DNA of 64,000 bases, taken from a bacterium (GTDB taxonomy: Bacteria; Patescibacteriota; Minisyncoccia; Phycocordibacterales; UBA1550). This document shows positions 4,197 to 50,900 of this stretch, one piece after another; the stretch's first letter is position 1; each line of letters opens with the position of its first letter. The notes beneath the pieces were generated by a model that was not told the origin of the DNA, did no database searches, and saw only the letters and a program-made list of their open reading frames with translations. The position numbers and the translations under genes are program-made. The stretch covers positions 4,130-68,129 of the forward strand of contig JAUSES010000029.1 of the NCBI GenBank assembly GCA_030649835.1. The letters are read 5' to 3'.

Positions 4197-4249
4197 AAAT
4201 CAATAGATGGGGAGGTTCGCTACGCGCACCTCCCCATCTATTGATTTTC
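4197..4249. terminator. perfect 21-bp-stem hairpin with a CGCTACGCG apex, between the ends of two convergent/minus-strand genes
   Basis: aaaatcaatagatggggaggt-tcgctacgcgc-acctccccatctattgatttt. Confidence 0.5.
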
Positions 4250-4266
4250 GCTTTCTGACACACAAA

Positions 4267-6183
4267 TTAAACCTCAAACTTCTTCTGAATAATTCCTCTC
4301 GGTGCCTCAACTTCTTGCGAGAAATCTGCCTGTGCGTAGGAGCCATCCTGTCCTTTTCTCATCACGCCCACATTGTATGTTCCCTTTGCCACCAACATAT
4401 AGTATCTGCCGAGTGCATCGGTAATACTTTTTCGCACCTCAACCTTACTATCCGGATGGGAAACTTTCACGACGCCAAAAGCAAGAGGGAGCCCCGTCTC
4501 TTTTTCAATGACTACCCCATGCGGTCTGTCCCCAGTTCCTACCTTGCGGAGAACCCAAACAAAAACATACAGTCCCCAAATTGCAAAATTATACGGCTGA
4601 GGATCAATAAAAATAATAAAAAGAGTTACAATAAAACCAACTATAAATAGGATGCGCGATAGTCGCTCAATAAAAATAATATTACGCGAATAAAACCCCA
4701 TAAGGTGCTGTGTGCGTTTTGCATATTCGTTCCAGTCAAACCCTTCGGGGTCCATGGGAATATCACGCGCAAGAAATGCCCCACCTTCAGTTAGTATAAG
4801 AGGTTCCCCAAAATATAGATTTCCGTAAAACTCATCCGCTGTTTTCCCCGCAAGCACCGTTGACGGAAATTTATAATTTGTTTTATTTACTACAATGCGA
4901 TAGATCCCCGGGGGCGCAAAAAACCCATACCGTCCATCAAGGTCAGTAAATGCCGTCGCAACTTCTTTCCCCTCAAGGGTTTGCAGTTCAACATACGCAG
5001 GATCAAGTGGTTGTTTTGTCACACTGTCATACACAGCGCCCCATGGGCGATGACGACGTTTGAGCCCAAACACGGTGAGCAGGAGTCCCCACAGCTGTGC
5101 GGGAAGTAGGAGCAACTCAGAAAATGAAAATGCCTGCGCAAACAGAAGCGAAAAGAGAGACGTGGTTCCTCCCATCACTACACCAGCAGTAGTTACCGTA
5201 TTACTTGTAATCGCCCCCTGAGGTGTATCTAAAACTATTTTTGCCCCTTGCCGAACATTATCAACTGACTTACGCGCCTGTACCGTACTTCTGTTTACTG
5301 ATTCTTTTGCATTTGAAAATGCGGTGCCTATGCTCGTGATAATATTACCGACTTGTTCTGAAACAGTGTTAACCACTGACGAAAAAGTACCTCCTCCTCC
5401 GCCACCCCCACCAGATGACCCACTATTATTTTGCCCTCCATTTTGCCCTCCATCGGGAGAAGGAATTGGGATTGGAGTAGGGGTTGGTTCTAATGTAGGA
5501 GTTGGAGTTGGGGTGGGCGCAGGTTCTGGTACGGGTGTAGGTTCGGGTATCGGCGTTGGAGGAGGTGTTGGTTCTGGGGTCGGTTCTGACGTTGGTGTAG
5601 GTGGCACAACCACTGGTCCCCCTCCCACAGGATCCGTTTCATTATTGTCACCTGTCCCTGTACACCCAGGATCTGTGGGATAATCTACTTTCCCATCACT
5701 GTCATCATCAATAACATTGCTACACTGTGGAGGTAACCAGTTTGTTTGTACTTTGTGTGAGAGCGTGCCACACGTGCTATCTGTCGCGCAGCTAAAAACA
5801 AGCCAGCCTTTTGTTTCACTCCACGCATAGCCATTAAAGTTTCCCGATGCATCGATGGTCACCCCGCCATTTGTGGGCTTAAAATTTATCCAGCCTGTGT
5901 TTTGCCCCCATGCATACCCGGTAAGGACGCCACTTCCGTTGTTTGTCACACCGCCATTTGTGGGTGCCAAATTGATCCAGCCAAAATTTGTACTCCATGC
6001 GTAACCAGTTATGTTTCCGCTATTCACCACCACGCCACCATTCGTACTACCAAAATTCACCAAAGAATTGTCATCCAAAAACCGCGCATACTTGTTTGTT
6101 GTATCAATGGTCCCCGCAGATGTAAGAAGAGGGACGGCGAAAAAGAAAAAAAGAGTGAGGGCGAGACGCTTCATTGACAACAT
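4267..6183 (-). CDS. modular membrane/surface protein: signal peptide, four Trp-rich beta-repeats (GYAWSxxxGWINF), a Pro/Thr-rich linker, a Gly-rich tract, TM helices and two carboxypeptidase-regulatory-like (CarboxypepD_reg-type) domains
   Basis: ORF-track translation shows a PTPEPTP linker, a GGGGGGGG run, hydrophobic helices, and motifs 'DLDGRYGFFAPPGIYRIVV' and 'DALGRYYMLVAKGTYNVGV'. The track starts at a TTG; the true start is probably MKRLAL at ~6174. Confidence 0.6.
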   Translation of the reverse strand: MLSMKRLALTLFFFFAVPLLTSAGTIDTTNKYARFLDDNSLVNFGSTNGGVVVNSGNITGYAWSTNFGWINLAPTNGGVTNNGSGVLTGYAWGQNTGWINFKPTNGGVTIDASGNFNGYAWSETKGWLVFSCATDSTCGTLSHKVQTNWLPPQCSNVIDDDSDGKVDYPTDPGCTGTGDNNETDPVGGGPVVVPPTPTSEPTPEPTPPPTPIPEPTPVPEPAPTPTPTPTLEPTPTPIPIPSPDGGQNGGQNNSGSSGGGGGGGGTFSSVVNTVSEQVGNIITSIGTAFSNAKESVNRSTVQARKSVDNVRQGAKIVLDTPQGAITSNTVTTAGVVMGGTTSLFSLLFAQAFSFSELLLLPAQLWGLLLTVFGLKRRHRPWGAVYDSVTKQPLDPAYVELQTLEGKEVATAFTDLDGRYGFFAPPGIYRIVVNKTNYKFPSTVLAGKTADEFYGNLYFGEPLILTEGGAFLARDIPMDPEGFDWNEYAKRTQHLMGFYSRNIIFIERLSRILFIVGFIVTLFIIFIDPQPYNFAIWGLYVFVWVLRKVGTGDRPHGVVIEKETGLPLAFGVVKVSHPDSKVEVRKSITDALGRYYMLVAKGTYNVGVMRKGQDGSYAQADFSQEVEAPRGIIQKKFEV

Positions 6184-6283
6184 TGTACAAAATTTGACAA
6201 CTTTCTACAATTTGATACACTACTTGAGTTAATGTCCGTCCCGAAAGCGGACTTTTTTGTTAATAATTAACTGAAAAATCACC

Positions 6284-7549: not shown

Positions 7550-7582
7550 TCCTATTAGCTAATAACCTAACACCTAAAACCT

Positions 7583-8119
7583 ATGTCTACAAATCTCTGG
7601 CATGATATTTCACTCGGCGACAATGCTCCTAAGGAAATCAACGTCATTGTTGAAATTCCAAAAGGCTCCAAAAATAAATACGAAATCGATAAAAAGACGG
7701 GGCTCATTGCGCTTGACCGCGCAATGCATAGCGCGCAGGATTACCCTTTTGACTACGGCTTTGTGCCACAAACACTGTGGGATGACGGCGATGCACTCGA
7801 CGTAGTGCTTCTCACTACCTATCCACTTGCTCCGGGGATTTTGGTAAGTGCTCGTCCAGTTGCTATTATGCACATGATTGATGGCGGTGAGGGCGACGAC
7901 AAAGTGATTGCAGTGCCTGTCGGCGATCCACGCTGGGCGGAAGTGCAGGATTTAAAAGACATCAACAAGCATACACTCAAAGAAATTGAGCATTTTTTCA
8001 CCACCTACAAAACAATTCAAAATAAAGTGGTGGAAGTGTCTGGGTTTGAAGGGAAGGATGCTGCCCATGCAGGGGTTTTAAAGAGTATTGAGCTCTATAA
8101 AAAAGAATTTGGGAAGTAG
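7583..8119 (+). CDS. ppa: inorganic pyrophosphatase (family I)
   Basis: Typical family-I PPase sequence (…VIVEIPKGSKNKYEIDKKTG…DGDALDVVLL…). Confidence 0.9.
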   Translation: MSTNLWHDISLGDNAPKEINVIVEIPKGSKNKYEIDKKTGLIALDRAMHSAQDYPFDYGFVPQTLWDDGDALDVVLLTTYPLAPGILVSARPVAIMHMIDGGEGDDKVIAVPVGDPRWAEVQDLKDINKHTLKEIEHFFTTYKTIQNKVVEVSGFEGKDAAHAGVLKSIELYKKEFGK

Positions 8120-8139
8120 CGGGGGGAACTAAAATACAC

Positions 8140-8290
8140 ACTCGGGACGGTGGGAACGGGAACCCACATGAGAAGGAAACGCACAGTCGCTACGCGACTG
8201 TGCGTTTCCTTGTTTTTATGTGTTCTTGCCATCCATATTCCTTCTGTCCCAAATGTTCCTACTGTCCCCTTTCTCTATCCCCTCTCTCCC
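8140..8290. repeat. intergenic palindromic element (family T copy 1) containing a rho-independent terminator hairpin (8173..8219) with a GCTACGCG apex
   Basis: ggaaacgcacagtcgctacgcgactgtgcgtttcc followed by a T-tract. It is flanked by gggacgg…gggaac on the left and gtcccaaatgttcc…ctgtccc on the right. Homologous copies lie at 44330..44445 and 50752..50900. Confidence 0.6.
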
Positions 8291-8389
8291 TTGTAGCCCA
8301 CACTCTTTCCTTATATACTACCTGTATGTGTGAGAAGAGGGGTCGTTGGGACTACAAAATTAATAGTTTTAAATAAACAAATAAAATAT

Positions 8390-9229: not shown

Positions 9230-9341
9230 TCTTATTAGCGACGTAGGACGAGCGAAGCGAAAAGTAATCTTTTCATTTCCGAGCCGAGGAGCTAATATAA
9301 GGGTTGAATACCGCTTTTATTCGTATAATTCATTAACTATT

Positions 9342-9638: not shown

Positions 9639-9663
9639 CAATCCTTTTCTCTCTCAAAAAATA

Positions 9664-9709
9664 AAGGACCGACCTTCTTGAATACTTAAGGTCGGTCCTT
9701 TATTTTTTG
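9664..9709 (+). terminator. rho-independent terminator
   Basis: aaaggaccgacc…ggtcggtccttt followed by attttttg. Confidence 0.6.
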
Positions 9710-11340: not shown

Positions 11341-12042
11341 CTAATACACCACCTCAGGGTCTTCCTGTGTAATGAGTTCGTATGGGATAAGTTCATTGTC
11401 GCGACACAAAAAATATGGAAGTTGATTGTGGGTAAAGTTTACAATTTCATTCGTGTTTTTATCCTTCCACTTTGTTGCAATTTTTTTCATAAGCGACATC
11501 TCCTCTACAGAAAGTGTTCGTATCTTTTCATTTTTATTGCTATCTGATTCGCTCACGAGAAGCATGCCTTTGCCATCAGTATTTTTGCGGTCTATCACAA
11601 TTTTGCCAGACTCCTCAAGCTCGTCGAGTGCGCGAAAAAAGGTATCTGGTACGGGACCATATGAAATCTTCCGATACTGCATGCCACTCATACTTTCAAG
11701 ATGTTCATAGAACCACGCGAAATCTGCAAGATAAAGCAACTTCGCAAGTTTTGTTTTAGTTACTTTGCCGTCATCTTTTTGCGTTAGACTCATGCGTAGA
11801 AAAGAAAGGATCATGTGTTTGTACTTTTCAATGTCGGGGATGGTGCCAGAGAGTAGAGTATCCACTCCGATACTAAAAAAACTTGCGAGCTTCTTTACTT
11901 CATCCACATCAAGCGGTTGTTTCCCTGCCTCTATCGCTGTATATGTTGAGCGAGAAACACCTATCGCTGTGGCGACCTGTTCCTGCGAAAGCCCTCGCCC
12001 TACCCGAAGACTCTTTATGAATTGTGCATATTTATTAGTCAT
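11341..12042 (-). CDS. XRE-family HTH protein fused to a Panacea (DUF4065, SocA/PanA-like antitoxin) domain
   Basis: N-terminus LSQEQVATAIGVSRSTYTAIEAGKQ is an HTH_3 motif. KLAKLLYLADFAWF…YRKISYGPVPDTFF matches the Panacea signature KLxKLLYxAxxW…YGPV. The likely start is MTNKYAQ at 12042; the track ORF extends to a TTG at 12078. Confidence 0.6.
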   Translation of the reverse strand: MTNKYAQFIKSLRVGRGLSQEQVATAIGVSRSTYTAIEAGKQPLDVDEVKKLASFFSIGVDTLLSGTIPDIEKYKHMILSFLRMSLTQKDDGKVTKTKLAKLLYLADFAWFYEHLESMSGMQYRKISYGPVPDTFFRALDELEESGKIVIDRKNTDGKGMLLVSESDSNKNEKIRTLSVEEMSLMKKIATKWKDKNTNEIVNFTHNQLPYFLCRDNELIPYELITQEDPEVVY

Positions 12043-12779: not shown

Positions 12780-12781
12780 AT

Positions 12782-15487
12782 CTATTTACTCGTGTACTTC
12801 TTATATAGCTCAAATAAAAATTCAATGCGGGATTCTTTGGTGGGGAATTTTTTGTTGTAGCAGGCGTCGACGGCGCGGTCGAGGTCGGTGTGGGCTTTGA
12901 CGAGCTCGGGTGGCATGGTGTTGGGATCGTATAGATCAGCAAGTGAGCTATGTGGAAATTGCGCACGAGCATCAAGCACACCTTGTGCGGACTCCTCTAC
13001 TTTTTTCTTTTGTTCATCTAAAATATTTTCTGGCCAGGGGAAGTTGTTATAAACAATGTTGATTGAATAATTGTAGTCACTTTTTAATCTTCCACACACT
13101 CTATTAACCCATGTCATGTGCATCAAGGAACTAAGTATTCCAAAAATATATAATAAATTATCTGAAACAACTGATGCTCCTTTGTTGTTGATAACGACAT
13201 TTTTGTGCATAAATCCAATGGGGATTACATCCCTGCTTTCAGAAGAAATGAGTGGGAAAAATAAAAAATTTTCCTCTGGTTGTCTCCTCTCTGCAAAAAT
13301 GGCAGGTGTACTTGCTAATTTTTGAGTTGCTTCACGCGAACTTTCTAAGCGGTGATTTTTAGTCTTCTCAATTCTTTCTAAAACCATCGGCATCATTCTT
13401 AATTTTGAAGGCTCAACACCAACAAGCCACAAGCAATATCGTTTTCTGCTGTTAATTAGTTCCTCAGATCCAATATACTCTCTAAAATACTCTGCACTTT
13501 GTGGTTCAGAATTAACGAACTCGAGGTACTCTTCTTTTGTAAAAATAAGATTACCTCCGTCATTCGGCATACTTCCAAAATTCATTTCTGGGACATTACA
13601 AATGGGCTTTCTGCGACTTTCCAAAAAAATATCATTTCCTTCTGAAAGATACGAGTTGATCTTTTTAACTTCTTTTTCCTTTGGCTCGCTTTTTATTGTC
13701 TCGTATTCATAGAGATATTTTTTAGAAGTCTCCACTGTCGCAAAACCCACAATGACACAATACACAGCTGCAACTCCAGGCGCATCATTATTCCATTTGA
13801 ATGTCTGATGTGCGAAGTGAATTACAATGCCATATTTTTCTTTTAATCTCTTCCACAAAATTCCCACTTGCTCACCTTGGCAGATTGAGTTAGTAGAAAC
13901 GAACGCGGTTTTGATATTGGTACCAACCATATATCGTGATGCCTTTTCATACCATGCAGTTACAAAATCCAAATTGCCTGCACCTTTTGCATTATCAAAA
14001 ATACTCAAGAACACCTCTTTTTGCCCTTTGCTCATTATTCGAGCGCCCACAAAAGGCGGATTACCGAGGATGTACGAGAGTTTGTGCTTGGGTACAACTT
14101 CTTCCCATTTTCTAGTAAGCGCGTTATCATTTACAATTGTCGCTGGTTCACGAAGCGGTAAGCGCAGGTATGGAATGCCAAATTTTGCCGAGAGCTCGTT
14201 GTTCATCTGATGATCTACAAGATACATTGCCGTGCGCGCAATCAGCGCTGGCGACTCCTCTATTTCTATTCCATAAAACTGATTAACATTGAGGAGCGAG
14301 AGGTCTTCGGTGCCAAACATTCTCATCTGTCCTGTTTTATTTTTTATATCAAGGATTTCGAGCTCAAGCCTGCGAAGTTCGCGATACGTAACCACAAGGA
14401 AGTTGCCGCAGCCGCACGCTGGGTCGAGGAATGTGAGCTTTGCAAGCTTTTGATGAAATGCATCAAGTTTTTTTGGATCATACTTCGCTTGATCAAATTC
14501 AACATACAACTCATCAAGAAAAAGTGGTTGAATGACTTTTAAAATATTTTTTTCAGAAGTATAGTGGGCTCCGAGCTGACGTCGACTATCTTCGTTCATT
14601 ACCCCTTGGAACAGGGAGCCGAAAATAGATGCTGATATTTCTGACCAACCAAAACTGCAACACTTCACGAGCTTTAGGCGCGCTCCTGCATCCAAAGATA
14701 CTGGAGCGATACGTTCCGCAAAAACTCCGCCGTTGATGTGTGGGAATGCGTTTAACTGCTCATCGAGATTTGTTTGTCGCTTTTCTCGTGGAGTGTTGAG
14801 GACTTCAAAAATTTGGAGCAAGTGAATGCCTAAATCACTACCGTCTATATTTGTGCGGTCTTCTATATAGGTGCGAAACTGCCCTTGCTGAAATATTCCA
14901 GTGTCCTCGGCAAAGAGGCAGAACAATATACGTGCGAGAAAAACATCAAGGTCATGCCCGCTGTATCCCGTCTTTGCAATCTCGTTGTGAAAATCCGCCA
15001 TCAATTTTGCCGCCTTGATGCTTGCCTCTTCTTCTTTTTCATAATGACGAACAGTATACCCAGAAATGAACCCAAAAAGTTCTATGTTTTTATGTAAATC
15101 TTTAAGCAAAAATTCTTCGTGCTTATTTTCTTCCAAGTCATATACTCGTATTTTTTCAAAATCGGAAACAACAATATAGCGTGGTAGCTCTGCGTTTTTT
15201 AATCCCGGGATATAGTCCTTTGCTTGAGCATATGCTTTGTCGAGGTCTTTGCCTCGCGACTTGTGTTCCGCAAGCATCACCCCTTTCCAGAGAACGTCGA
15301 TAAACCCCTGCGCGCCATCCTGCTTTTTAACATTATATTCAAATGCTGCGACCCTGCGACGAGGAACGCCAAAAACCTCAAAAAATCCGTCCCAAAAACT
15401 TTTTGCTTCTGCGTCTTCGTTGCATTCTCGCTCCCATTCGTGGGCAAAAACGAGGGCGCGGTTTCGTATTTCGTTGAGACTTATCAT
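12782..15487 (-). CDS. Type IIG/IIL single-polypeptide restriction-modification enzyme, MmeI family (N-terminal PD-ExK nuclease, N6-adenine methyltransferase, TRD)
   Basis: FIDVLWKGVMLAEHKSRGKDL matches the MmeI nuclease D-x9-E-x-K motif. LDPACGCGNFLV is motif I. GNPPFVG is motif IV (N6-A methyltransferase). The C-terminal LADLYDP…AH.DLD..V tail is MmeI-like. Length is ~900 aa. Start ATG at 15487 with GGAGG upstream. Confidence 0.75.
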   Translation of the reverse strand: MISLNEIRNRALVFAHEWERECNEDAEAKSFWDGFFEVFGVPRRRVAAFEYNVKKQDGAQGFIDVLWKGVMLAEHKSRGKDLDKAYAQAKDYIPGLKNAELPRYIVVSDFEKIRVYDLEENKHEEFLLKDLHKNIELFGFISGYTVRHYEKEEEASIKAAKLMADFHNEIAKTGYSGHDLDVFLARILFCLFAEDTGIFQQGQFRTYIEDRTNIDGSDLGIHLLQIFEVLNTPREKRQTNLDEQLNAFPHINGGVFAERIAPVSLDAGARLKLVKCCSFGWSEISASIFGSLFQGVMNEDSRRQLGAHYTSEKNILKVIQPLFLDELYVEFDQAKYDPKKLDAFHQKLAKLTFLDPACGCGNFLVVTYRELRRLELEILDIKNKTGQMRMFGTEDLSLLNVNQFYGIEIEESPALIARTAMYLVDHQMNNELSAKFGIPYLRLPLREPATIVNDNALTRKWEEVVPKHKLSYILGNPPFVGARIMSKGQKEVFLSIFDNAKGAGNLDFVTAWYEKASRYMVGTNIKTAFVSTNSICQGEQVGILWKRLKEKYGIVIHFAHQTFKWNNDAPGVAAVYCVIVGFATVETSKKYLYEYETIKSEPKEKEVKKINSYLSEGNDIFLESRRKPICNVPEMNFGSMPNDGGNLIFTKEEYLEFVNSEPQSAEYFREYIGSEELINSRKRYCLWLVGVEPSKLRMMPMVLERIEKTKNHRLESSREATQKLASTPAIFAERRQPEENFLFFPLISSESRDVIPIGFMHKNVVINNKGASVVSDNLLYIFGILSSLMHMTWVNRVCGRLKSDYNYSINIVYNNFPWPENILDEQKKKVEESAQGVLDARAQFPHSSLADLYDPNTMPPELVKAHTDLDRAVDACYNKKFPTKESRIEFLFELYKKYTSK

Positions 15488-15541
15488 GTGTTTTACGTCC
15501 TCCAAGTATACGCCCAATTGTTTTTAATACAAAACGTGCGA

Positions 15542-16255
15542 CTATTTCACAAGTGCCAAGGTGAGTGCGACGATTGCTGCTGTTTCGGCGCGGAGGATTT
15601 GGGGGCCGGTGGTAACAATGGGGATTTTGTGTGAGTGTAAAAACGCTATTTCCTCATCTGTGAAACCTCCTTCGGGGCCGATGAACAGCGAAACGGGTGA
15701 GACTGTGTGCTTCGTGAAATACTCTCGCGCGGATGTTTCTCCACGTGGGTCAAACACGATAAAGTTTTTGTGGGGGATATCTTCCGTTTTTATAATTTCT
15801 AAAATCTCTGGCACCGTTGTGCGCCCAGACTGTTCTGATGCTTCACGCACTATCTTTTGCGCGCGTTCATAGTTCACTCCCTTCTTTTCACTTCGGTCTG
15901 CTTGCACGGGCACAATGCGCGAGGCACCAAGCTCGGTTGCTTTTTCCAACACCATTTCAAAATTATCCTTTTTAATAAGTGCTAGATACAAAGTAACTTC
16001 ACGAAGTGATGAAGGAATGTGTTTCTTTTCCAAAACTTTAAGTGTTGCGAGACTTTTAGACAGTGAAACAAATTCACACAAGGCCTCATCCCCTTTCCCA
16101 TCAAAAAGAACAGCCTTGTCGCACGCCTCCATGCGAAGCACATTCCGCCATTGATTAAGGAGACCCTTGTCCACTAGATTAAACTCAGCGCCCTCAGGCG
16201 GAAGCTCTTTCTTCGGAAAATCCTTATCGTCCACAAAAAATCTATGTAGTTTCAT
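15542..16255 (-). CDS. rsmE: 16S rRNA (uracil1498-N3)-methyltransferase RsmE
   Basis: The RsmE C-terminal motif FIGPEGGFTDEE is present. Confidence 0.8.
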   Translation of the reverse strand: MKLHRFFVDDKDFPKKELPPEGAEFNLVDKGLLNQWRNVLRMEACDKAVLFDGKGDEALCEFVSLSKSLATLKVLEKKHIPSSLREVTLYLALIKKDNFEMVLEKATELGASRIVPVQADRSEKKGVNYERAQKIVREASEQSGRTTVPEILEIIKTEDIPHKNFIVFDPRGETSAREYFTKHTVSPVSLFIGPEGGFTDEEIAFLHSHKIPIVTTGPQILRAETAAIVALTLALVK

Positions 16256-17740: not shown

Positions 17741-18337
17741 ATGTCCTACTTAATCCCAACTGTTATTGAAAAGTCGCCACAAGGCGAACGTGCGTATGAT
17801 ATTTACTCGCGCCTACTCAAGGAGCGCATCATTTTCCTTTCGGGCGCTATTGATGATGACACGGCAAACATCACCATCGCTCAGCTTCTTTTTCTTGAAT
17901 CTGAAGATCCAAAAAAAGATATTTCTTTATACATCAACTCCCCCGGTGGCTCCGTGACTGCAGGAATGGCGCTCTACGACACCATGCAACACGTGAAGCC
18001 AGATGTTTCTACTATTTGTGTTGGAATGGCAGCATCAATGGGTGCAGTGCTTCTCTCTGCGGGCGCAAAGGGTAAGCGTTTCATACTTCCCAATGCTGAG
18101 GTAATGATTCACCAGCCACTCGGGGGCACCGAGGGGCAGGCGTCCGACATCGCCATCACTGCAAAACATATTTTGAAAATAAAGGAGAATTTGAATAAAA
18201 TACTTTCAAAAAACACCGGCAAGCCTCTCGCACAAATAGAAAAAGACACCGACCGCGACTTTTTCATGTCCGCCGAAGAGGCTAAAAAGTATGGCATCAT
18301 CGACGAGATTTACAAACCCAAGAATCCGCGAAGCTAG
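17741..18337 (+). CDS. clpP: ATP-dependent Clp protease proteolytic subunit
   Basis: [11 protein letters not shown] (Ser), MIHQP (His) and the Asp of the catalytic triad are present. Confidence 0.9.
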
Positions 18338-18403
18338 CCTGCAAAAAAACATCCCCCGCCTTTTTGAAAAAGGCGGGGGATGTTTTTTTGCAGGCTAGCT
18401 TCG
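18331..18403. terminator. long perfect palindrome acting as a bidirectional terminator between clpP (+) and the AAA ATPase gene (-)
   Basis: gaagctagcctgcaaaaaaacatcccccgcc tttttgaaaaa ggcgggggatgtttttttgcaggctagcttc. Confidence 0.6.
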
Positions 18404-21461: not shown

Positions 21462-21497
21462 TTCGCAATAAACAGCTATAGCTGTTTATTGCGCGAA
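21462..21497. promoter_or_regulatory. ~35-bp palindrome P1 (ttcgcaataaacagctatagctgtttattgcgcgaa) just upstream of the PaaX-like gene
   Basis: Perfect dyad. A near-identical palindrome P2 lies at 22141..22190, just downstream of the same gene. Confidence 0.6.
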
Positions 21498-21505: not shown

Positions 21506-22111
21506 GTGGTATATACTATCAAAATGTCCGCAAGTAAACTCCAAAGGCATGCGCGCCAAAAGCCCCGTCGTAGTGCCTTGCAGCAAAAAATTCTTCTTCT
21601 CTTGTCCGCTGGCCTCGCGCTCGGGCTTACCCGTAACCCAAATCAATACTTTCGCATTGTACGAGAGGCAGGAAAAGAGTTGGACAAAATAAACCGCGGC
21701 TCTCTTAATCGCGCGATCCGCTCTCTGTATGAATCAAAGCTTGTTTCCACAAAAGACAACCATGATGGCACACTGACACTAGTGTTGTCTAAAGAAGGGA
21801 AGCAGCTTGCGTTGACGTACAACATTAATAACATGGAGATAAAAAAGCCGACACAATGGGACGGAAAGTGGCGGATTGTGATGTTTGATGTGCCAGAGCC
21901 ACTCAAAAAAGTGCGCGACTCGCTTCGTATGCATTTTAAAAATATGGGATTTTATGAATTTCAGAAATCTGTGTTTGTGCATCCGTATCCGTGCGCAAAG
22001 GAGATAGAGTATATTGTGGAGTTTTATGAGGCGCAAAAATATATTCGATTTATTGTTGCGACAGATATTGATAACGCACTGGAGCTGAAGAAGAATTTCC
22101 ATCTTCTTTGA
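21506..22111 (+). CDS. PaaX-like transcriptional regulator domain protein (wHTH plus PaaX-C-like domain)
   Basis: WDGKWRIVMFDVPEPLKKVRDSLRMHFKNMGFYEFQKSVFVHP resembles the PaaX C-terminal domain (Cas2/VapD-like fold). Confidence 0.45.
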   Translation: MVYTIKMSASKLQRHARQKPRRSALQQKILLLLSAGLALGLTRNPNQYFRIVREAGKELDKINRGSLNRAIRSLYESKLVSTKDNHDGTLTLVLSKEGKQLALTYNINNMEIKKPTQWDGKWRIVMFDVPEPLKKVRDSLRMHFKNMGFYEFQKSVFVHPYPCAKEIEYIVEFYEAQKYIRFIVATDIDNALELKKNFHLL

Positions 22112-22140: not shown

Positions 22141-22190
22141 TCTCTCCCGCGCAATAAACAGCTATCGCTGTTTATTGCGCGGGAGAGAGC
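22141..22190. repeat. 45-bp palindrome P2 (ctctcccgcgcaataaacagcta tcg ctgtttattgcgcgggagag)
   Basis: It shares its core with P1 and sits between convergent genes, so it is likely also a terminator. Confidence 0.6.
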
Positions 22191-23552: not shown

Positions 23553-23612
23553 GTTCAAAAAAAAGAAAACTCAGGCTTTTAAAAAGCCTGAGTTTTCTTT
23601 TTTTTTGAACCT
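23553..23612. terminator. bidirectional palindromic terminator between hup (+) and the methyltransferase gene (-)
   Basis: gttcaaaaaaaagaaaactcaggcttttt aa aaagcctgagttttctttttttttgaac. Confidence 0.6.
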
Positions 23613-31974: not shown

Positions 31975-32320
31975 AGTCGGGGTGCCGTGCCCAAGGCATG
32001 AATCAGCTGATTCAGAATCGAACTCGGCCTAATCTAAATTTCTTATGGAAATTTCCGCGGAAGTGTTTGGACACTTCCGGTTAAAGCTTTAGTCGGGGTG
32101 CCGAGGAATCCCCGCCTGCCATCGCCTGACTGATCCTTACGAAGCGATTGGCAGTGGCGGGCAGGGAACTCGGCCTATATTCTAGTGAGTGAGCGAAAAG
32201 TAAATACCAATTTACTTTTCCGAGCGAACGACGAATATATTGTACCCAGTTATATCTAAATTTCTAAAGGAAATTTCCGCGAAAGCATCTATATGCTTTC
32301 GGTTAAAGAATGTGTCGGGG
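31975..32320. repeat. two degenerate tRNA-Pro 3'-fragment copies (gtcggggtgccg…aactcggcc), each interrupted by an insertion of ~27 or ~60 nt and followed by a conserved ~60-nt hairpin segment
   Basis: Compared against the intact tRNA at 32315..32385; shared downstream block atctaaatttctNaNggaaatttccgcg…ttNcggttaaag. Confidence 0.55.
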
Positions 32321-32385
32321 TGCCGAGAATCGAACTCGGCCTATCTGCTCCCAAAGCAGACGTACTACCGATATACTACACCCCG
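32315..32385 (-). tRNA. tRNA-Pro (anticodon GGG)
   Basis: C1:G72 and A73 as in bacterial tRNA-Pro, anticodon loop TTGGGAG, T-loop TTCGATT. Confidence 0.75.
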
Positions 32386-32399
32386 ACACATTCTTCAAC

Positions 32400-32495
32400 C
32401 CCACGCAGACGTACTACCGATATACTACACCCCGACTAAAGCTTCAACCCCAAAGCAGACGTACTACCGATATATAACTGCATACAATATATCCT
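32400..32495. repeat. two additional partial copies of the tRNA-Pro 5' half (gcagacgtactaccgatata…) in tandem upstream of the tRNA
   Basis: Period ~45-49 bp with three copies including the tRNA itself. Confidence 0.55.
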
Positions 32496-32647
32496 GCGTT
32501 CGCTCGAAAATACAAACTCCATGTTTGTATTTTACTCACTCACTTGGATATACTACACCCCGTTACACGTGAAACGTAGGAGAATATTAGCACACAAGAG
32601 GCAAATTACGAAATTTGAACACTTGGAACCAGAACATGGGGTAGGTT

Positions 32648-34511: not shown

Positions 34512-34527
34512 GCCCTATCCGCACAAT
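34512..34527. repeat. direct repeat of the tRNA-Gly(GCC) 3' end (ccctatccgcacaat), ~195 bp distal to the tRNA
   Basis: Exact 15-nt repeat of 34318..34332. The intervening segment starts with tgcggatagag (tRNA 5'-like) and contains ggagaatcgaaagccgg, shared with the element next to tRNA-Gly(TCC). Confidence 0.55.
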
Positions 34528-34579
34528 AAATATAAAATAGTCAGCCTCTCTTGAGAGGCTGACTATTTTATATTTATTG

Positions 34580-34651
34580 TGCCCACGCCAGGATTCGAAC
34601 CTGGAATAACGGTTTCGAAGACCGTTGTGATATCCATTTCACTACGAGGGC
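34580..34651 (-). tRNA. tRNA-Arg (anticodon TCG)
   Basis: Acceptor with one T·T mismatch, anticodon loop CTTCGAA, T-loop TTCGAAT. Bidirectional terminator hairpin at 34541..34566. Confidence 0.7.
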
Positions 34652-42902: not shown

Positions 42903-44315
42903 ATGGTAGCAACATTTGTTCTTGTCTATATGCTGATGATGATACCAATAGGTATCTATGCATCAAAGCGGGTCAAGTCTTCTCAGGATTTTGCACTCGC
43001 GGGCAGGCATTTGCCTTTTTCTATGGCAATGGCGACCGTGTTTGCCACATGGTTTGGTTCAGAGACATTTATGGGCGCGGGGTCACGCATGGCAGAGGGG
43101 GGCTTTCTTTCTGTTATTGAAGATCCGTTCGGCGCAGGGCTTTGTCTCATACTCATTGGTTTCTTTTTTGCAAAAAAACTCTACGCGCGTCACAACCTCA
43201 CTATCGGTGACTATTTTCACGAGCGCTACAACAAAGTTGTCGCGACAATGCTTTCCGTTGCAATCATTCTCACCTATTTTGGTTGGGTGGCTGCGCAGTT
43301 TGTCGCGCTCGGCATCATCCTCAATCTGCTCCTCGGTATCCCAGCAATAACCGGAATGCTCATTGCGGCAATTATCATCGTAATCTACACCTACATCGGC
43401 GGTATGTGGGCGGTGTCTATTACTGACACCGTGCAAATGGCGGTAATAGTCATTGGTCTTATTGTTATTTTAGTTGAGGTGCTTTCTCAAAACGGTGGTG
43501 TTTCGTCTATTATTGCAAACACTCCTTCTGACTTTTTTAGAGTAACCCCAAGCGATGCCACCACAAAAGACTGGCTTGCATGGGTCGCCGCATGGATGAC
43601 CATCGGGCTTGGGTCTATTCCCCAACAAGATGTGTATCAGCGTGTCATGTCTGCAAAGTCTGCAGTAATCGCAAAGTGGGCATCGGTCTCTGCGGGGGTT
43701 CTTTACTTCACTATTGCGCTTATTCCACTTACGCTTGGGCTCATCGCTCGCATAAAATATCCCGAGCTCGTGATAAGCGACCCGCAACAACTCCTCCCTA
43801 CACTTATTTTGGACAATACAAACATGATCACGCAAATATTTTTCTTTGGTGCACTTCTCTCTGCCATTATGAGCACCGCGTCCGGCGCGCTCCTCGCTCC
43901 CGCAACACTCCTTGGAGAAAATGTGATTAAGCCATTTTACAACAATATTTCTGACAAAACTCGTCTCTCTATTATTCGTTTCTCTATTATTGTTGTTGCT
44001 TTGGGAGCACTTGCCCTTGCTTCATCTCAAGGGAGTATTTATGAGCTAGTTAGTGGCGCGTATTCAATAACTCTTGTTTCAGCATTTATTCCGCTGGTGT
44101 TTGGGCTCTACACACACAAAGCAAATAGTCTGGGGGCCCTCTTTGCGATTATTCTTGGTGCGGGGGGTTGGCAATTTACCGAGCTCTACGTTACAGACCC
44201 GATGGTTCCCGCAACACTTGTTGGTTTAGGCCTTAGTTTCTCGGGAATGCTGCTTGGGATTTTACTTGAGAAACATATTCACAAGGTAACTCATCACTTT
44301 AGGAAAACAACTTGA
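42903..44315 (+). CDS. sodium:solute symporter (SSS) family transporter
   Basis: ~13 TM helices; PutP/PanF-like N-terminal region with GRxL and GSETFMG motifs. Confidence 0.75.
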   Translation: MVATFVLVYMLMMIPIGIYASKRVKSSQDFALAGRHLPFSMAMATVFATWFGSETFMGAGSRMAEGGFLSVIEDPFGAGLCLILIGFFFAKKLYARHNLTIGDYFHERYNKVVATMLSVAIILTYFGWVAAQFVALGIILNLLLGIPAITGMLIAAIIIVIYTYIGGMWAVSITDTVQMAVIVIGLIVILVEVLSQNGGVSSIIANTPSDFFRVTPSDATTKDWLAWVAAWMTIGLGSIPQQDVYQRVMSAKSAVIAKWASVSAGVLYFTIALIPLTLGLIARIKYPELVISDPQQLLPTLILDNTNMITQIFFFGALLSAIMSTASGALLAPATLLGENVIKPFYNNISDKTRLSIIRFSIIVVALGALALASSQGSIYELVSGAYSITLVSAFIPLVFGLYTHKANSLGALFAIILGAGGWQFTELYVTDPMVPATLVGLGLSFSGMLLGILLEKHIHKVTHHFRKTT

Positions 44316-44329
44316 AAACAAAAGGAACA

Positions 44330-44445
44330 TTTGGGACAGGAAGAACCGAGAGACAAGTGAACGCCCAATCGCTACGCGATTGGGCGTTCACTTGTCTCTA
44401 TTCCTTGTTCCCACCCGTCCCAAACGTTCCCCCTGTCCACGCGTA
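44330..44445. repeat. family-T palindromic element copy 2 (gggacagg…agagacaagtgaacgcccaatcgctacgcgattgggcgttcacttgtctct…gtcccaaacgttcc…cctgtcc)
   Basis: Hairpin with a GCTACGCG apex; likely terminator of the transporter gene. Confidence 0.6.
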
Positions 44446-44745: not shown

Positions 44746-45024
44746 CGAATTCCCCATTTTTGCGTATTTCTTTGTTGCTCGTTTTGTTTGCTCTCGCGAA
44801 GTACTGTTCGTACATCTTGGTCGCAAACATCACTCGCGCCTCGAACTACACTAAAAATGAGAAATTCTGGCCATAAGAAACTCCGCTTCGCGGAGTTTCT
44901 TATTTTCTCGCTTCATGCGATACTATTTGTGGGTACAACTAATCATTTTTAATAAACGAGTCACTGGCATTTTTTGTATTTTCTAATGGCTAGTGGCCAA
45001 CAACTAACAACTATTTTATATATG

Positions 45025-45615: not shown

Positions 45616-45672
45616 AAAATTCAAAAAATAAGCCCGACACTTGCGTGTCGGGTTTTTTGATTGCTTTCGCAA

Positions 45673-45873: not shown

Positions 45874-46003
45874 ATCTTCTCCAATTTTGGAACAAAAAAA
45901 TCAACAGATTGCTCTGTTGAACCAGCCCACACCCTAACACACTAGACATAAAGTTGCAAGTCCGCGCTTTGATAGCGCGCCTGAACAGGCTATAATACAT
46001 GCA

Positions 46004-46993: not shown

Positions 46994-47091
46994 CATCCCT
47001 ATCCATATACCATAGTATCTTAATCAGAATACCTGTTCAAAAAACTAGTCACCATCAACCCACTTTCTACATTTTATCGAGGAGAAGTTAT

Positions 47092-47940: not shown

Positions 47941-48034
47941 TTTATGAGACAGCTCGTTTACTCAAGCCATTTTGGCAGAAGTAGACGAGCTGTTTTTATT
48001 AAAATTTAAGAATACGAGAGATGCTCGCTCCTTT

Positions 48035-48643: not shown

Positions 48644-48737
48644 GATTGATTATCATCTTACCGTAACTATCACAAAGTATCTACATGGTCCTCCCTAAAT
48701 ATTGCATTTCATACTTCATATGATAAACTGTTCTCAT

Positions 48738-49097
48738 ATGATAAATACCGACGATCTCAAAAATACTCTTCTGGAAGAAAAGGCACGGCTCATGCTCGAG
48801 CTTTCTGGTGTTGGACATGAAAATCCTGAGATAGAGGGCGACTGGCAACCATCTGCGCCAGACTTAAATATCCCCACCGCAGACATCAATGATACCGCAG
48901 ACAGCATGGAAGCTTTTGAAGAAGCTGCTGCCATAGAAGTGGAGCTTGAAGCGCGACTTCTTGAAGTAGACTCTGCGCTCTCACGCATTGAAGCCGGCAC
49001 ATACGGCATTTGTCGCATCTGCGGAAGCGCCATCGAAGATGCGCGTTTGCATGCAAACCCCGCAGCACCAACCTGCATCGCGCACCGAGAAGGATAA
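48738..49097 (+). CDS. DksA/TraR-family C4 zinc-finger protein
   Basis: C-terminal CRICGSAIEDARLHANPAAPTCIAH, a four-Cys finger. A hairpin at 49082..49124 overlaps the stop. Confidence 0.65.
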   Translation: MINTDDLKNTLLEEKARLMLELSGVGHENPEIEGDWQPSAPDLNIPTADINDTADSMEAFEEAAAIEVELEARLLEVDSALSRIEAGTYGICRICGSAIEDARLHANPAAPTCIAHREG

Positions 49098-49201
49098 GTT
49101 GCTCCGCAACTTATCCTTCTCGGTGCGCACAATTGACCTGTGACAATTAACATGTGACGAATGCACCCTCTGTCAATTGTCAAATGTTAATTGTTAAACG
49201 T

Positions 49202-49218
49202 CCCCCCCCCTTTTTTTT
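49202..49218 (+). promoter_or_regulatory. C9T8 homopolymeric tract directly abutting the comM start codon
   Basis: cgtccccccccc tttttttt ATG. No Shine-Dalgarno sequence. Confidence 0.5.
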
Positions 49219-50751
49219 ATGCAATTTTCAAAACTATTTTCTGCGCAAATAGTTGGTCTTGTCCCCCATATTGTTGAAGTTGATCTCTCCAAGGGGCTCA
49301 ACAATTTTTCTCTAGTGGGGCTTCCGAGTGCGTCGGTAGATGAGTCCCGCGACCGCGTGAGCGCTGCAGTCAAAAACTCTGGCTACGAATCACCAAAACA
49401 AAAAAATCAAAAAACAGTAATCTCCCTCGCGCCTGCCGAGCTCAAAAAAGAGGGCTCGCATTACGACCTCGCCATCGCACTCGCGTATCTTTTTGCATCC
49501 GGTGAAACAAACTTTGACCCCAAAGGGAAACTTTTTCTCGGCGAGCTCGCGCTGGACGGCACCCTTCGCCCCATTCACGGTGCTCTTCTCATTACCAACG
49601 CCGCAAAACAAGCCGGCTTCACAGAAATATTTTTACCAAAAGTGAATGCCGAGGAAGCCGCACTCGTAGAGGGGATAGTTGTGTATGGTGTGCGCAATCT
49701 CATTGAAGCACTGCACCACCTTGATAAAAAGATGAAATTTAATTTGACCGCGTTTGAGCGAACTGAAAAAACTCCACAGACAAATACAACAAACAAAACA
49801 AACGTTGATCTCTCGCACATCAAGGGACAAGAGTTTGCAAAACGCGCACTTGAAATAGCCGCCGCAGGCAATCACAACCTTGCTTTGTGGGGGCCACCAG
49901 GAACAGGGAAGACAATGCTCGCGCAGGCGTTTCCGCACTTGCTCCCCGATTTACAAAATGAACATTCGCTGGAGGTGACTGGTATTCACTCGGTCGCAGG
50001 AACACTCCGTGAAAACATTATGACGCGCCCGCCTCTTCGCGCGCCACATCACACTGCCTCGTACCCTGCGGTTATTGGCGGAGGAACCACACCAAAGCCG
50101 GGGGAGATTACACTCGCGCATCGCGGTGTGCTTTTTTTAGATGAATTTCCTGAGTTTGATAGGCGTGTCATTGAGTCACTTCGTGAGCCACTTGAAGAGG
50201 GGCACATTCGCATCACGCGTTCAAAAGGTCATGACACATTTCCTGCACGATTCATTTTGCTCGCCGCAATGAACCCATGCCCGTGTGGAAAATATGGAAG
50301 CGAAGAACGCTGTACCTGTATGCCCGGCACGCTCGCTTCATACACGCGGAAAATTTCTGGCCCCATTGTAGACCGCATTGAGCTTTGGGTAAAAGTTTCC
50401 CACATGAGCCACGATAAACTCTCACAAAAAAGTGCGAGTGAAAACACGGAGAGAGTTCGTGCGCGGATTGAATCTGCGCGCAAAGTACAACAAGCACGCT
50501 TCGCAAACCATTCGCGTAAGATTACGACCAATAGCGAAATGCGCGCAGATGATATTGAAACTTTTATACAACTCTCACCAAAACTTCGCACTCTTTTCAA
50601 TGCTTCCGCTGAACGCCTCAGGCTTTCCCCACGCGCACATCACAAAACCATCAAGGTCGCCCGCACCATTGCAGACCTCGACCAGTCTCCCGATATCCAA
50701 GAAAAACATCTCCTCGAAGCCTTTGCATATAGACCAACGGAGCTGAGGTAG
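49219..50751 (+). CDS. comM: YifB/ComM-family Mg-chelatase-like AAA+ ATPase
   Basis: ChlI-type ATPase with Walker A GPPGTGKTMLA and an N-terminal Lon-protease-like domain. Confidence 0.85.
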   Translation: MQFSKLFSAQIVGLVPHIVEVDLSKGLNNFSLVGLPSASVDESRDRVSAAVKNSGYESPKQKNQKTVISLAPAELKKEGSHYDLAIALAYLFASGETNFDPKGKLFLGELALDGTLRPIHGALLITNAAKQAGFTEIFLPKVNAEEAALVEGIVVYGVRNLIEALHHLDKKMKFNLTAFERTEKTPQTNTTNKTNVDLSHIKGQEFAKRALEIAAAGNHNLALWGPPGTGKTMLAQAFPHLLPDLQNEHSLEVTGIHSVAGTLRENIMTRPPLRAPHHTASYPAVIGGGTTPKPGEITLAHRGVLFLDEFPEFDRRVIESLREPLEEGHIRITRSKGHDTFPARFILLAAMNPCPCGKYGSEERCTCMPGTLASYTRKISGPIVDRIELWVKVSHMSHDKLSQKSASENTERVRARIESARKVQQARFANHSRKITTNSEMRADDIETFIQLSPKLRTLFNASAERLRLSPRAHHKTIKVARTIADLDQSPDIQEKHLLEAFAYRPTELR

Positions 50752-50900
50752 GGGAACGAGGGGGACACACGGGACAGGAAGAACGAAAAATATACGAAAC
50801 AACGCGCTGTCGCGTAGCGACTGCGCGCTTCTTCCCCGTGTGGGGTTCCCCTTGTGTGCCCCTGTTCTTCTTGTCCCAAATGTTTCCCCCCCCCCGCCCC
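50752..50900. repeat. family-T palindromic element copy 3 (gggacaggaagaac…cgcgctgtcgcgtagcgactgcgcg…gttcttcttgtcccaaatgtttccccccccc)
   Basis: Outer IR gggacaggaagaac/gttcttcttgtccc, a GCGTAGCG apex hairpin, and a terminal C9GC5 tract. Confidence 0.6.

Follow-up and report, generated by a model that had tools for sequence, protein, structure and literature searches.

The window analysed here is a 64-kb stretch of DNA from a Patescibacteria MAG that is Parcubacteria/Yonathbacteria-like, and over most of its length the plus strand has a negative GC skew. The gene ends of this host bear many perfect palindromes of 20–37 bp, often with TNC or GNA triloops closed by a C-G pair. The sequence CGCTACGCG occurs exactly four times in the window (4218, 8188, and 44370 on the plus strand and 50811 on the minus strand) versus 0.17 expected from shuffles, and a count of four was reached in 0 of 100 shuffles. 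Each occurrence sits at the tip of a long hairpin, where a CGC/GCG clamp closes a TAC (or GTA) triloop, in agreement with an earlier note on this DNA, which had reported the same apex in four intergenic hairpins. One of the four hairpins is H1; the other three form the centers of larger elements, E2, E3, and E4. The gene identities confirm the placement given in that note directly after ppa, the SSS-transporter gene, and comM: the upstream genes encode an inorganic pyrophosphatase (ppa), a sodium:solute symporter, and a YifB/ComM-type Mg-chelatase-like ATPase, and E2, E3, and E4 begin 5, 8, and 1 nt past the respective stop codons. E4 ends 13 nt before the stop codon of a convergent M23 peptidase gene. 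The features are as follows.

4192..4252, no strand assigned: H1, a long hairpin with A...T flanks, located downstream of 4267-6183 (a gene on the minus strand), with arms of 29 nt that are 93% complementary; its overlap with the family is TCGCTACGCG only
8120..8270, no strand assigned: whole nested-palindrome element E2, lying after the ppa stop codon (8117-8119) and before the gene that follows; nhmmer 125.9 bits
8125..8157, plus strand: E2 left arm with GGRAC units, namely GGAAC at 8125 and GGGACGGTGGGAAC at 8144-8157
8173..8211, no strand assigned: E2 central hairpin with 18 perfect pairs below a CGC-TAC-GCG apex and with GTTTTTATGT after it; terminator-like in the scan; covariance model 71.3 bits
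8237..8268, minus strand: E2 right arm, in which the GGRAC units are inverted; it contains the GTCCCAAATGTTCC box (8246-8259)
44316..44440, no strand assigned: whole element E3, filling the gap from the symporter stop codon (44313-44315) to the rpsO promoter region; nhmmer 111.5 bits
44324..44346, plus strand: E3 left arm, GGAACATTTGGGACAGGAAGAAC
44349..44399, no strand assigned: E3 central hairpin, 24 perfect pairs, apex CGC-TAC-GCG; covariance model 72.7 bits
44404..44439, minus strand: E3 right arm, including GTCCCAAACGTTCCCC (44417-44432)
50752..50898, no strand assigned: whole element E4, nearly the whole gap between the convergent comM-like gene (stop 50749-50751) and M23 peptidase gene (stop 50901-50903); nhmmer 114.6 bits
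50753..50784, plus strand: E4 left arm, four 9-nt units (GGAACgagg GGGACacac GGGACagga AGAAC)
about 50800..50830, no strand assigned: E4 central hairpin with a CGC-GTA-GCG apex, imperfect owing to a T.T mismatch and an additional base in one of its arms; covariance model 59.2 bits
50843..50887, minus strand: E4 right arm, inverted units including GTTCTTCTTGTCCCAAATGTTTCC

E2, E3, and E4 are homologous copies of one nested palindrome of 125–150 bases, in which inverted arms of 9-nt-periodic GGRAC units surround a central hairpin. The nhmmer E-values range from 1e-33 to 1e-37 for the three copies in the window and reach 6e-26 for a copy in the related MAG L018. Terminal inverted repeats in the form of GGAACATTTGGGACAGGAAGAAC / GTTCTTCTTGTCCCAAATGTTTCC-type arms are present in all three elements, the box GTCCCAAAYGTTYCC matches at four sites (8246, 44323 on the minus strand, 44417, and 50873), and the exact 14-mer GGGACAGGAAGAAC is found at 44333 in E3 and at 50771 in E4 with inverted partners; the outer inverted repeats and shared box described previously are therefore real. 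The pattern GGRAC-N4-GGRAC occurs 12 times in 66.6 kb versus 0.2 expected, always within E2, E3, E4, or one coding linker, and has no matches in 165 kb of the relatives' loci.

The central hairpins follow the consensus AACGCnCnnT-CGCTACGCG-AnnGnGCGTT with compensated changes in the stem. Seven of the 21 pairs of the central helix carry changes on both sides (10 cells), a result matched in 0–1 of 500 shuffles, and slid registers yield at most 4. The statement that the stems all differ consequently applies to the hairpin at 4197-4249 (H1) but not to the three composites, which can be aligned (AACGC.C..T / A..G.GCGTT). Covariance modeling, as the earlier note had suggested, separated the elements (59–73 bits) from unrelated long hairpins (13–29 bits). 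H1 scored 25.7 bits, inside the range of the unrelated hairpins, and cannot be demonstrated to belong to the family; it has no nhmmer match at E<=10 and is not present at the orthologous site in L128 or L129.

These scores bear on the possibility that independent terminators converged on a hyperstable apex, such that there is no family but only a genome-wide taste for C-G-clamped TNC/GNA triloops. Of the window's 23 long perfect hairpins, 9 carry a GC-TNC-GC-type apex, as do the imperfect H1 and E4; CGC-TTC-GCG is also the apex of the unrelated rpsO terminator at 44873 and TCGC-TTC-GCGA that of an unrelated hairpin at L128:6521, and GAA/TTC triloops are frequent among the hairpins of relatives. 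With this apex class, (T)CGC-TNC-GCG(A), present on unrelated hairpins, the proposed four-member 'Family T' defined by its apex is not supported. Convergence does account for H1, a separate hairpin that may have converged on or borrowed the same stable apex. It is nevertheless refuted for E2–E4 by the homology of the arms: these elements and the L018 copy have about 100 nt of arms and stem in common beyond the apex, the GGRAC arrays far exceed expectation (12 versus 0.2), and convergence cannot yield an exact common 14-mer located 25 nt from the apex. As a general account we regard it as very improbable.

Comparison with related genomes identified at least one further copy, among the matches listed, at a different locus in L018 (GCA_964642305.1). 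This copy likewise lies 1–8 nt behind a stop codon, that of an unrelated 434-aa ORF, and the comM-like protein of L018 is 87% identical. E2 was not found downstream of ppa in L124 and L128, and E3 was not found in L121 and L118, where the orthologous intergenic gap is just 37–70 nt; the comM or NusA homologue of the relatives lacking E2 or E3 at orthologous sites is 84–92% identical. A tyrosine recombinase encoded near E3 is also found in relatives without E3. The orthologous gene ends in relatives carry unrelated perfect palindromes of 15–31 bp, and orthologous hairpins of L121 and L122 differ at three stem positions, all of them compensated. The site of E4 in L122 holds a different nested palindrome with ATTTGGGAT arms (16.9 bits in the covariance model) and, because of this palindrome at the same site, E4 may have been inherited in place rather than inserted. 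A metagenome scan revealed no additional copy and viral scans revealed no copy; the copies seen are three in 64 kb plus at least one elsewhere.

For the three composites, the nhmmer E-values, the L018 copy, and the absences of E2 and E3 uphold the suggestion of a REP/MITE-like family rather than independent terminators. We lean toward the view that E2, E3, E4, and the L018 copy constitute a low-copy, non-autonomous interspersed palindromic repeat of 125–150 bp that supplies 3'-end hairpins. Each copy forms a single long imperfect hairpin composed of a C-G-clamped triloop apex (TCGC-TAC-GCGA), an inner stem, and two inverted arms, with the sequence of the inner stem drifting while pairing persists. 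The copies sit directly behind stop codons, a position that in this lineage is always held by some long perfect palindrome, and the element could act as a portable 3'-end hairpin for bidirectional termination and/or protection of the mRNA 3' end. Spread would be non-autonomous, with the repeat either mobilized in trans or copied via recombination between hairpins, and the inner stems may stay perfect either because folding on both strands is selected for or because template switching corrects the palindromes.

The elements resemble intrinsic terminators in having a G+C-clamped stem-loop a few bases past stop codons, with E4 lying between convergent genes and E2 followed by a T tract. Their stems are much longer, however, with 18–24 perfect pairs within a hairpin of about 55 pairs, and E2 alone has a proper T tract (GTTTTTATGT). 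The E3 hairpin is followed by only TCTATTCCTT, and on the plus strand no T tract follows the central hairpin of E4, in which only a 5-pair substem (50815-50802, minus strand) was called. Because E3 and E4 have no canonical U tract, intrinsic termination is not evident for them.

Folding energies were low for all three elements: −71 kcal/mol on either strand for E2 (z about −8), −70 (plus) and −89 (minus) kcal/mol for E3 (z about −13), and −70 kcal/mol for E4 (z −5 to −6). In the arms of E3, the minus strand can accommodate all eight transition mismatches as G.U pairs and the plus strand none of them, and the ratio summed over E2, E3, and the L018 copy is 20:5. Together with the compensated changes in the central helix, this asymmetry is what would be expected of a structured RNA (an sRNA gene or a 3'-UTR element acting in cis) with the long hairpin on the GUA-loop strand. 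The inner stems, on the other hand, consist of Watson-Crick pairs and contain no G.U pair at all, an indication that the constraint acts on both strands or on DNA. E4 shows no asymmetry (3:3), strand-biased C-to-T mutation pressure could produce the same pattern given the negative plus-strand GC skew, and the element is missing from close relatives. A search of Rfam 15 found only tRNAs at or above the gathering score in the window; around E2 and E3 it returned only miRNA-precursor-type hairpin noise, far under threshold (12–32 bits versus gathering scores of 45–100). A structured RNA is accordingly an unlikely explanation.

The asymmetry also fits the folding of a single DNA strand, as in a REP/RAYT-like or IS200/IS605-like system, where a single-stranded DNA hairpin would be the substrate of a Y1/HUH transposase encoded elsewhere and the invariant apex its recognition site. 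The 11-nt apex TCGCTACGCGA does not change among the four homologous copies, in contrast to the 12 stem pairs next to it, of which 5 vary; the copies are dispersed and extragenic, and in E4 the loop is oriented opposite to the other copies (GTA on the plus strand). Like REPs and REPINs, the elements are palindromes that lie outside and behind genes and fold as a whole into a longer hairpin, with an apex more conserved than the stem and one copy flipped. REPs, in contrast, are 20–40 nt long with a conserved 5' GTAG/GGAG at the foot, whereas the present elements, at 125–150 nt, are 3–5 times that length and contain GTAG only inside the apex (CGCGTAGCG). REPs also occur in tens to hundreds of copies per genome and come with a RAYT gene that has REPs on either side; here three copies were seen in 64 kb, a low density, and no transposase or Y1/RAYT gene (Y1 transposase, PF01797) was detected in any sizeable ORF of the window. 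The apex class is shared with unrelated hairpins as well, and we judge this mechanism unlikely.

The preferred reading, a low-copy interspersed repeat, makes the element a new but rather unexceptional case of a small intergenic repeat, of which other bacteria have known examples. ERIC, Correia (CREE), and RUP elements are likewise imperfect palindromes of about 100–150 bp without coding capacity that are intergenic, dispersed, near gene ends, and co-transcribable with flanking genes; their sites are occupied in one genome and empty in relatives, and they can supply hairpins that affect termination or mRNA stability. They have no sequence similarity to E2–E4, their terminal inverted repeat is unique whereas the arms of E2–E4 are 9-nt-periodic GGRAC arrays, and the copy number of E2–E4 so far is very low by comparison, in a host that is a Patescibacteria MAG. 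Correia elements duplicate TA, whereas E2–E4 have no target-site duplication and no recognizable IS partner in the window; none of the three elements has a direct repeat of >=3 nt adjoining its two ends, a weak negative as the exact ends are uncertain. The terminal inverted repeats, the presence/absence differences (E2 and E3 absent in relatives) and the L018 copy at a non-orthologous locus are shared with MITEs, the E4 site being ambiguous in this respect. In the literature, we found no report of such repeats in Patescibacteria.

The arm motif GTCCCAAAYGTTCC also codes for VPNVP, in frame, in the proline-rich linker of one protein family. This occurs at L131:8568-8640 (twice), L132:756, and L133:6446, with CCAAATGTTCCTCCT in L134, such that four genomes carry the in-frame motif in this linker, which is poorly conserved. 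Rickettsia palindromic elements (RPE) and Coxiella MITEs are similar in that a repeat sequence lies in frame inside a protein gene, in a variable, tolerant segment, but here only the pyrimidine-rich arm motif and no whole palindrome is within the gene. For the Coxiella MITEs, the in-frame location inside protein genes is described in one report (PMC5896051). Since all four genomes have the arm motif in the same protein family, the linker gene may be a source rather than a target. The in-frame motif is left unexplained by a simple mobile-element picture.

It fits a scenario that involves no transposition, in which palindromes at gene ends grew locally by template switching, similar ones homogenized each other through gene conversion, and the GGRAC/GTYCC arms came from (V-P-x)n-coding linker DNA. 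The arm units follow the exact 5+4 pattern of GTN-CCN-NNN codons, the codon choice seen for VPNVP has a chance of about 0.015 per site, ATATTCC...TGTCCCAAATGTTCCT.CTG is common to the right arm of E2 and the linker in L132, and the E4 site of L122 already holds a nested palindrome. The low covariance score of that L122 hairpin speaks against this origin, as do the short E3 gap in relatives, where no precursor is visible, the unrelated locus of the L018 copy, and the nhmmer result for the coding segment, which is not significant (E = 0.077). We consider the scenario quite unlikely.

Uptake sequences are spread over a whole genome at a density of about one per kb, inside and outside genes and on either strand. 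Neisseria DUS and Haemophilus USS pairs resemble the arms in that a repeated motif is arranged as inverted pairs around a terminator, and GGAAC-RTTT-GGGAC could in principle be such a DNA-uptake signal, tolerated in variable linkers; its inverted pairs lie behind genes, it is in frame in the linker of several genomes, and a ComM-like protein is encoded in the window. The density of GGAAC-RTTT-GGGAC is far lower, though, with about six copies in 66 kb, all within the three elements or one gene, and none in 165 kb of the relatives' loci except that linker gene. Counts outside the elements are already near chance level in the DNA examined, and an uptake signal is hardly credible.

A bolder proposal, to which we likewise assign a low probability, would make the element a Patescibacteria-specific module acting as a folded single strand: the apex TCGC-TAC-GCGA would be a recognition or nicking site, the GGRAC arrays a platform for a putative protein (a recombinase, a transposase, or an RNA- or DNA-binding factor), and the module would have been exapted as (V-P-x)n linker coding sequence. 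If true, no mobile or repeat system of this kind would have been defined earlier in the candidate phyla radiation. Integron attC sites also act as folded single strands and are imperfect palindromes of 57–141 bp directly after stop codons, with conserved ends and a variable middle. Their conservation pattern is the opposite of that in E2–E4, where the apex is also conserved. An attC identity was rejected, as the RYYYAAC/GTTRRRY core sites are absent and the ends are GGAACATTTGGGAC / GTCCCAAAYGTTCC, with GTTCCCC rather than GTTRRRY. E2–E4 differ further from attC sites in being flanked by housekeeping genes in conserved synteny.

The apex sequence CGCTACGCG was found four times in the window (at 4218, 8188, and 44370 on the plus strand and at 50811 on the minus strand) against 0.17 copies expected, and none of 100 dinucleotide-preserving shuffles of the window contained four copies. 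As the earlier note had described, every copy forms the top of a hairpin. A three-pair CGC/GCG clamp there encloses a TAC triloop (GTA on the opposite strand).

Hairpins topped by the common apex (H1, E2, and E3 from inverted-repeat lists)
4192-4252, H1 hairpin, 29-nt arms, 93% complementary
8173-8211, E2 hairpin, 18 perfect pairs
44349-44399, E3 hairpin, 24 perfect pairs
~50800-50830, E4 hairpin, imperfect

The last three of these hairpins are the centres of nested-palindrome elements of 125-150 bp, E2 (8120-8270), E3 (44316-44440), and E4 (50752-50898). The outer inverted repeats and common box that the note ascribed to them are present: the box GTCCCAAAYGTTYCC matches at 8246, 44323 (minus strand), 44417, and 50873, and GGGACAGGAAGAAC occurs exactly in E3 (44333) and E4 (50771), with inverted partners at 44426 and 50864. 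The genes upstream were identified as those for an inorganic pyrophosphatase, a sodium:solute symporter, and a YifB/ComM-type ATPase, in agreement with the reported positions behind ppa, an SSS-transporter gene, and comM. The elements start 5 nt (E2), 8 nt (E3), and 1 nt (E4) after the respective stop codons, and E4 ends 13 nt short of the stop codon of a convergent M23 peptidase gene. No direct repeat of 3 nt or more was found at both ends of E2, E3, or E4, a weak negative given the uncertainty of the exact ends. A C-rich, homopolymer-like run, CCCCCCCCCCGCCCCC, lies between the right end of E4 and the M23 stop codon (50887-50900) and could favour slippage.

E2, E3, and E4 can be aligned along their entire length. 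A profile built from them matched the three elements themselves and one locus in a relative, L018:6683-6790, with E-values of 1e-26 to 1e-37; neither the rest of the window nor ~120 kb from related genomes yielded a further copy. With a covariance model for the 57-nt centre, these four copies scored 59-73 bits and unrelated long hairpins of the window 13-29 bits. The L018 copy follows an unrelated ORF of 434 aa, starting 7 nt past its stop codon. The assembly that carries it (GCA_964642305.1) is labelled 'Saccharibacteria', but it also has a ComM protein (L119) 87% identical to that of the window, and the organism is therefore related to the window's despite the label. The REP/MITE-like family is thus real, comprising E2, E3, and E4 in the window and a fourth member in the relative. 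The four-member family proposed in the note holds for E2, E3, and E4 and gains the L018 copy, but it loses H1, which has no arms, scores 25.7 bits, within the background range, and shares only TCGCTACGCG with the others; H1 is therefore not a demonstrable member. The family is defined by the whole nested palindrome, the apex alone being insufficient.

In this group, gene ends normally carry long perfect palindromes: the window contains 23 palindromes with at least 11 perfect pairs, the longest with 37 pairs, and each relative examined (L118, L121, L122, L124, and L128) has its own set. Those at gene ends (e.g., 18329-18403, 55589-55652, 34521-34582, and 23557-23605) span 20-37 bp, with loops of 0-4 nt and no G.T pairs, and their sequences are unrelated at orthologous sites of related genomes. 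Frequent tops are C-G-closed TNC triloops (GNA on the other strand), with TTC (four times), TCC, and TAC in the window and GAA and TTC in relatives. The rpsO terminator at 44873 is topped by CGC-TTC-GCG, and L128:6521, which the covariance model scores at 40 bits, by TCGC-TTC-GCGA. Minihairpins of the type d(GCGNAGC) with GNA triloops are exceptionally stable. A common preference for stable tops would explain an identical apex on H1 without kinship; the rough chance of the exact apex on one of ~20 unrelated hairpins is ~0.01 with random apices and up to ~0.3 given the observed apex preference.

The pattern AACGCNNNNTCGCTACGCGA (16 fixed bases) proved too loose across genome contigs, matching at least 115 loci; almost all of the matches listed were chance matches in G+C-rich genomes, and among them only L018 had a paired 3' arm (9/9). 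A 21-base two-armed pattern gave one match in metagenome contigs, G+C-rich with unpaired inner positions and attributed to chance, and none in viral contigs, where the arm pattern gave 120 chance matches, none with an inverted partner. The 17-mer CAATCGCTACGCGATTG had eight chance-like matches in viral contigs, and CAGTCGCTACGCGACTG had 23, all in unrelated contigs of ~50% G+C and without arms. ACAGTCGCTACGCGACTGG occurs in 23 IMG/VR viral contigs (L143-L165, e.g., L144:5964-6018; ~50% G+C) in at least six distinct flanking contexts and is sometimes present twice, 38 nt apart. At L154:3428-3444, between convergent genes, it overlaps the stop codon of an ORF of 767 aa; a nearby ORF resembles, by eye, a ubiquitin hydrolase. 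This viral sequence, E2's 17-mer without the arms, probably represents an unrelated hairpin motif used at 3' ends in a virus group.

Each element forms one long imperfect hairpin of ~55 pairs per arm, with folding energies of -70 to -89 kcal/mol and z-scores of -5 to -13. The centre has the consensus AACGCnCnnT-CGC-TAC-GCG-AnnGnGCGTT; the 11-nt apex is identical in all four copies, and five of the next 12 pairs are variable. Within the 21-pair central helix, nine pairs are invariant and seven are changed on both sides (10 cells), values matched by 0-1 of 500 shuffles, and slid registers give at most four such pairs. Perfect pairing has been kept through compensated change. In the arms, 9-nt units with a GGRAC core are strung into arrays, and the opposite side mirrors them as GTYCC units; one arm of E4, for example, reads GGAACgagg-GGGACacac-GGGACagga-AGAAC. 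In the searchable DNA of this genome (66.6 kb, the window plus 2.6 kb from same-sample Logan contigs), GGRAC-N4-GGRAC occurs 12 times versus 0.2 expected, and it is absent from 165 kb of relatives' loci. The E4 loop reads GTA on the plus strand, which, as the palindrome is identical on both strands, just means that E4 is oppositely oriented. Orientation is defined by the loop alone because the palindrome is G-rich-first on either strand, and a description of the G-rich arm as facing the upstream gene is meaningless. A UNCG tetraloop in CGCUACGCG was ruled out, as C(UACG)C has no closing pair.

Synteny is kept around both regions in genomes with ComM or NusA proteins 84-92% identical to those of the window, and the elements vary in presence and absence between these relatives. 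At the E3 site, L121 and L118 have a symporter-rpsO gap of 37-70 nt that holds no element. Behind the pyrophosphatase gene (the E2 site), an unrelated perfect palindrome of 24 bp is present in L124, and L128 offers nothing comparable; the H1 hairpin is missing from its site in L128/L129. At the E4 site of L122 (11543-11658), whose ComM protein is 84% identical to the window's, a nested palindrome likewise makes up the convergent comM-M23 gap. It folds at -53 kcal/mol (z = -10), its arms are of the ATTTGGGAT type, and its inner hairpin reads GAAATACGCACGAGACC-TTT-GGTC...; TCCCAAAT lies at a similar distance from the M23 stop codon in L122 and E4. This palindrome is possibly an older homologue of E4, that is, an ancestral element at the site. 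Homology of the L122 hairpins to the central hairpin was rejected: their covariance-model scores lie within background (16.9 bits at 11587 and 26.2 bits at 16108), and the points in its favour are limited to architecture, position, and an 8-mer (ATTTGGGA / TCCCAAAT). L121 and L122 have orthologous inner hairpins that are both perfect; three stem positions differ between them, each with a compensating change.

The family is therefore a homologous, dispersed, structured repeat located directly behind genes. Its terminator function and mobility are inferred. The element would be a long 3'-end hairpin of the kind this lineage sets behind genes, where it would terminate transcription on either strand and/or block 3'-exonucleases, and it may have spread to new gene ends through a mechanism in trans or by recombination. 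A T tract proper is present in E2 and absent from E3 and E4, making classical intrinsic termination doubtful for the latter two. The inner stems are strictly Watson-Crick, with no G.T pair in helices of 18-37 bp, which points to a constraint on both strands or on the DNA itself and argues that selection on one RNA alone would not produce them. Template switching that corrects quasipalindromes is one candidate source of perfect stems. Transition mismatches in the arms favour the GTA-loop strand (8:0 in E3; 20:5 over E2, E3, and the L018 copy), and one strand could thus be the one that folds; the plus-strand GC skew, negative over most of the window, leaves room for a purely mutational origin of this asymmetry.

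The nearest ComM-like and NusA homologues are named Candidatus Yonathbacteria, Paceibacterota, Nomurabacteria, Parcubacteria, etc., which places the host (~44% G+C in the window) in the Patescibacteria (CPR). The ORFs scanned encode housekeeping proteins, a two-component system, an MmeI-family restriction-modification enzyme, a Xer-like tyrosine recombinase, and hypothetical proteins, with no transposase among them. The closest known kinds are palindromic MITE-like repeats (ERIC, Correia, and RUP) and REP/REPIN sequences. Like MITEs, the elements have terminal inverted repeats and presence/absence polymorphism, but no target duplication was found; unlike REPs, they match neither the size nor the foot tetranucleotide, and no RAYT gene was seen in the window. 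Integron attC (core sites absent), dif/Xer, uptake-sequence (motif density far lower here), and CRISPR readings were ruled out, and no Rfam family matched. In well-studied bacteria, REP, ERIC, Correia, and RPE sequences influence transcription ends, mRNA stability, and genome rearrangement. Patescibacteria/CPR genomes are small, compact, and believed to be poor in mobile DNA, and no account of such repeats in them was found in the literature. The family belongs to an under-studied phylum, and its observed copy number is low. The defined family and its covariance model can aid gene-end annotation in these MAGs, may account for assembly breaks, and offer an entry point to how the lineage makes and maintains very long perfect palindromes. 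The sole public short-read contig of the region, Logan contig L001 (SRR13727527), stops inside the E2 hairpin (L001:4409, window 8205), and breaks at such palindromes may fragment these genomes.

The arm motif also occurs twice in tandem within a gene 2.3 kb past the window end. This gene lies on a Logan contig that matches the window without a difference across 6,263 nt. There, GTCCCAAACGTTCCC codes for VPNVP in the linker SVPNVPSVPSVPNVPLVPPTPHP of a hypothetical protein (NCBI Q7K40_01750).

Arm motif GTCCCAAAYGTTCC with adjacent 9-nt GTYCC units, in frame in a proline-rich linker
L131:8568-8640 (~66305-66377), Logan contig past the window end
L132:756, orthologue, GTCCCAAATGTTCCT
L133:6428-6460, orthologue, GTCCCAAACGTTCCCCC, placed elsewhere in the protein
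L134:7931, orthologue, CCAAATGTTCCTCCT

These orthologues have the same DNA at just 33-44% identity. With the codon usage of the window, the chance of encoding VPNVP by that codon choice is ~0.015 per site; adjacent linker units (GTTCCCCTT and ATTCCnnnn) also match the arms of E2, E3, and E4, and the arm units, with their 5+4 pattern, fit GTN-CCN-NNN exactly. By nhmmer alone, the coding segment was not a significant match (E = 0.077). Judged from codon choice, adjacent units, and the 5+4 pattern, arms and linker would have either DNA ancestry or a constraint in common, a small concrete case of a repeat and a coding sequence sharing DNA.

Several other features of the window were recorded. On the minus strand, 12782-15517 encodes a complete restriction-modification enzyme of the MmeI family (type IIL), in which all five MmeI domains are present; MmeI-family enzymes recognise short asymmetric sites, and nothing supports a tie to the elements. 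A palindrome family, CGCAATAAACAGCTATAGCTGTTTATTGCGCG, brackets a PaaX-like regulator gene (21506-22111) at 21464-21495 and 22150-22181, with a variant upstream of the rRNA adenine dimethylase gene both here (57838-57869) and in a relative (L118:19956-19975), and looks like an operator site. A second, paired family, AAAATAAAGGACCGTCCTTTATTT (core GGACCGNCC), is found at 9658-9705, 58207-58271, and 52216-52235 / 52385-52404, one pair being upstream of a trigger-factor gene and another inside the range of the dimethylase ORF. Positions 1-3900 (minus strand), within which L001 begins, carry long arrays of 51-nt (17-codon) periodic repeats and 300-nt repeats of 79-86% identity and look like a gene or gene set for large repetitive surface-type proteins. 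Finally, direct repeats of 49 and 74 nt at 32032-32500 surround a tRNA gene (32315-32385), the 3' part of which is repeated, and resemble an integration scar.
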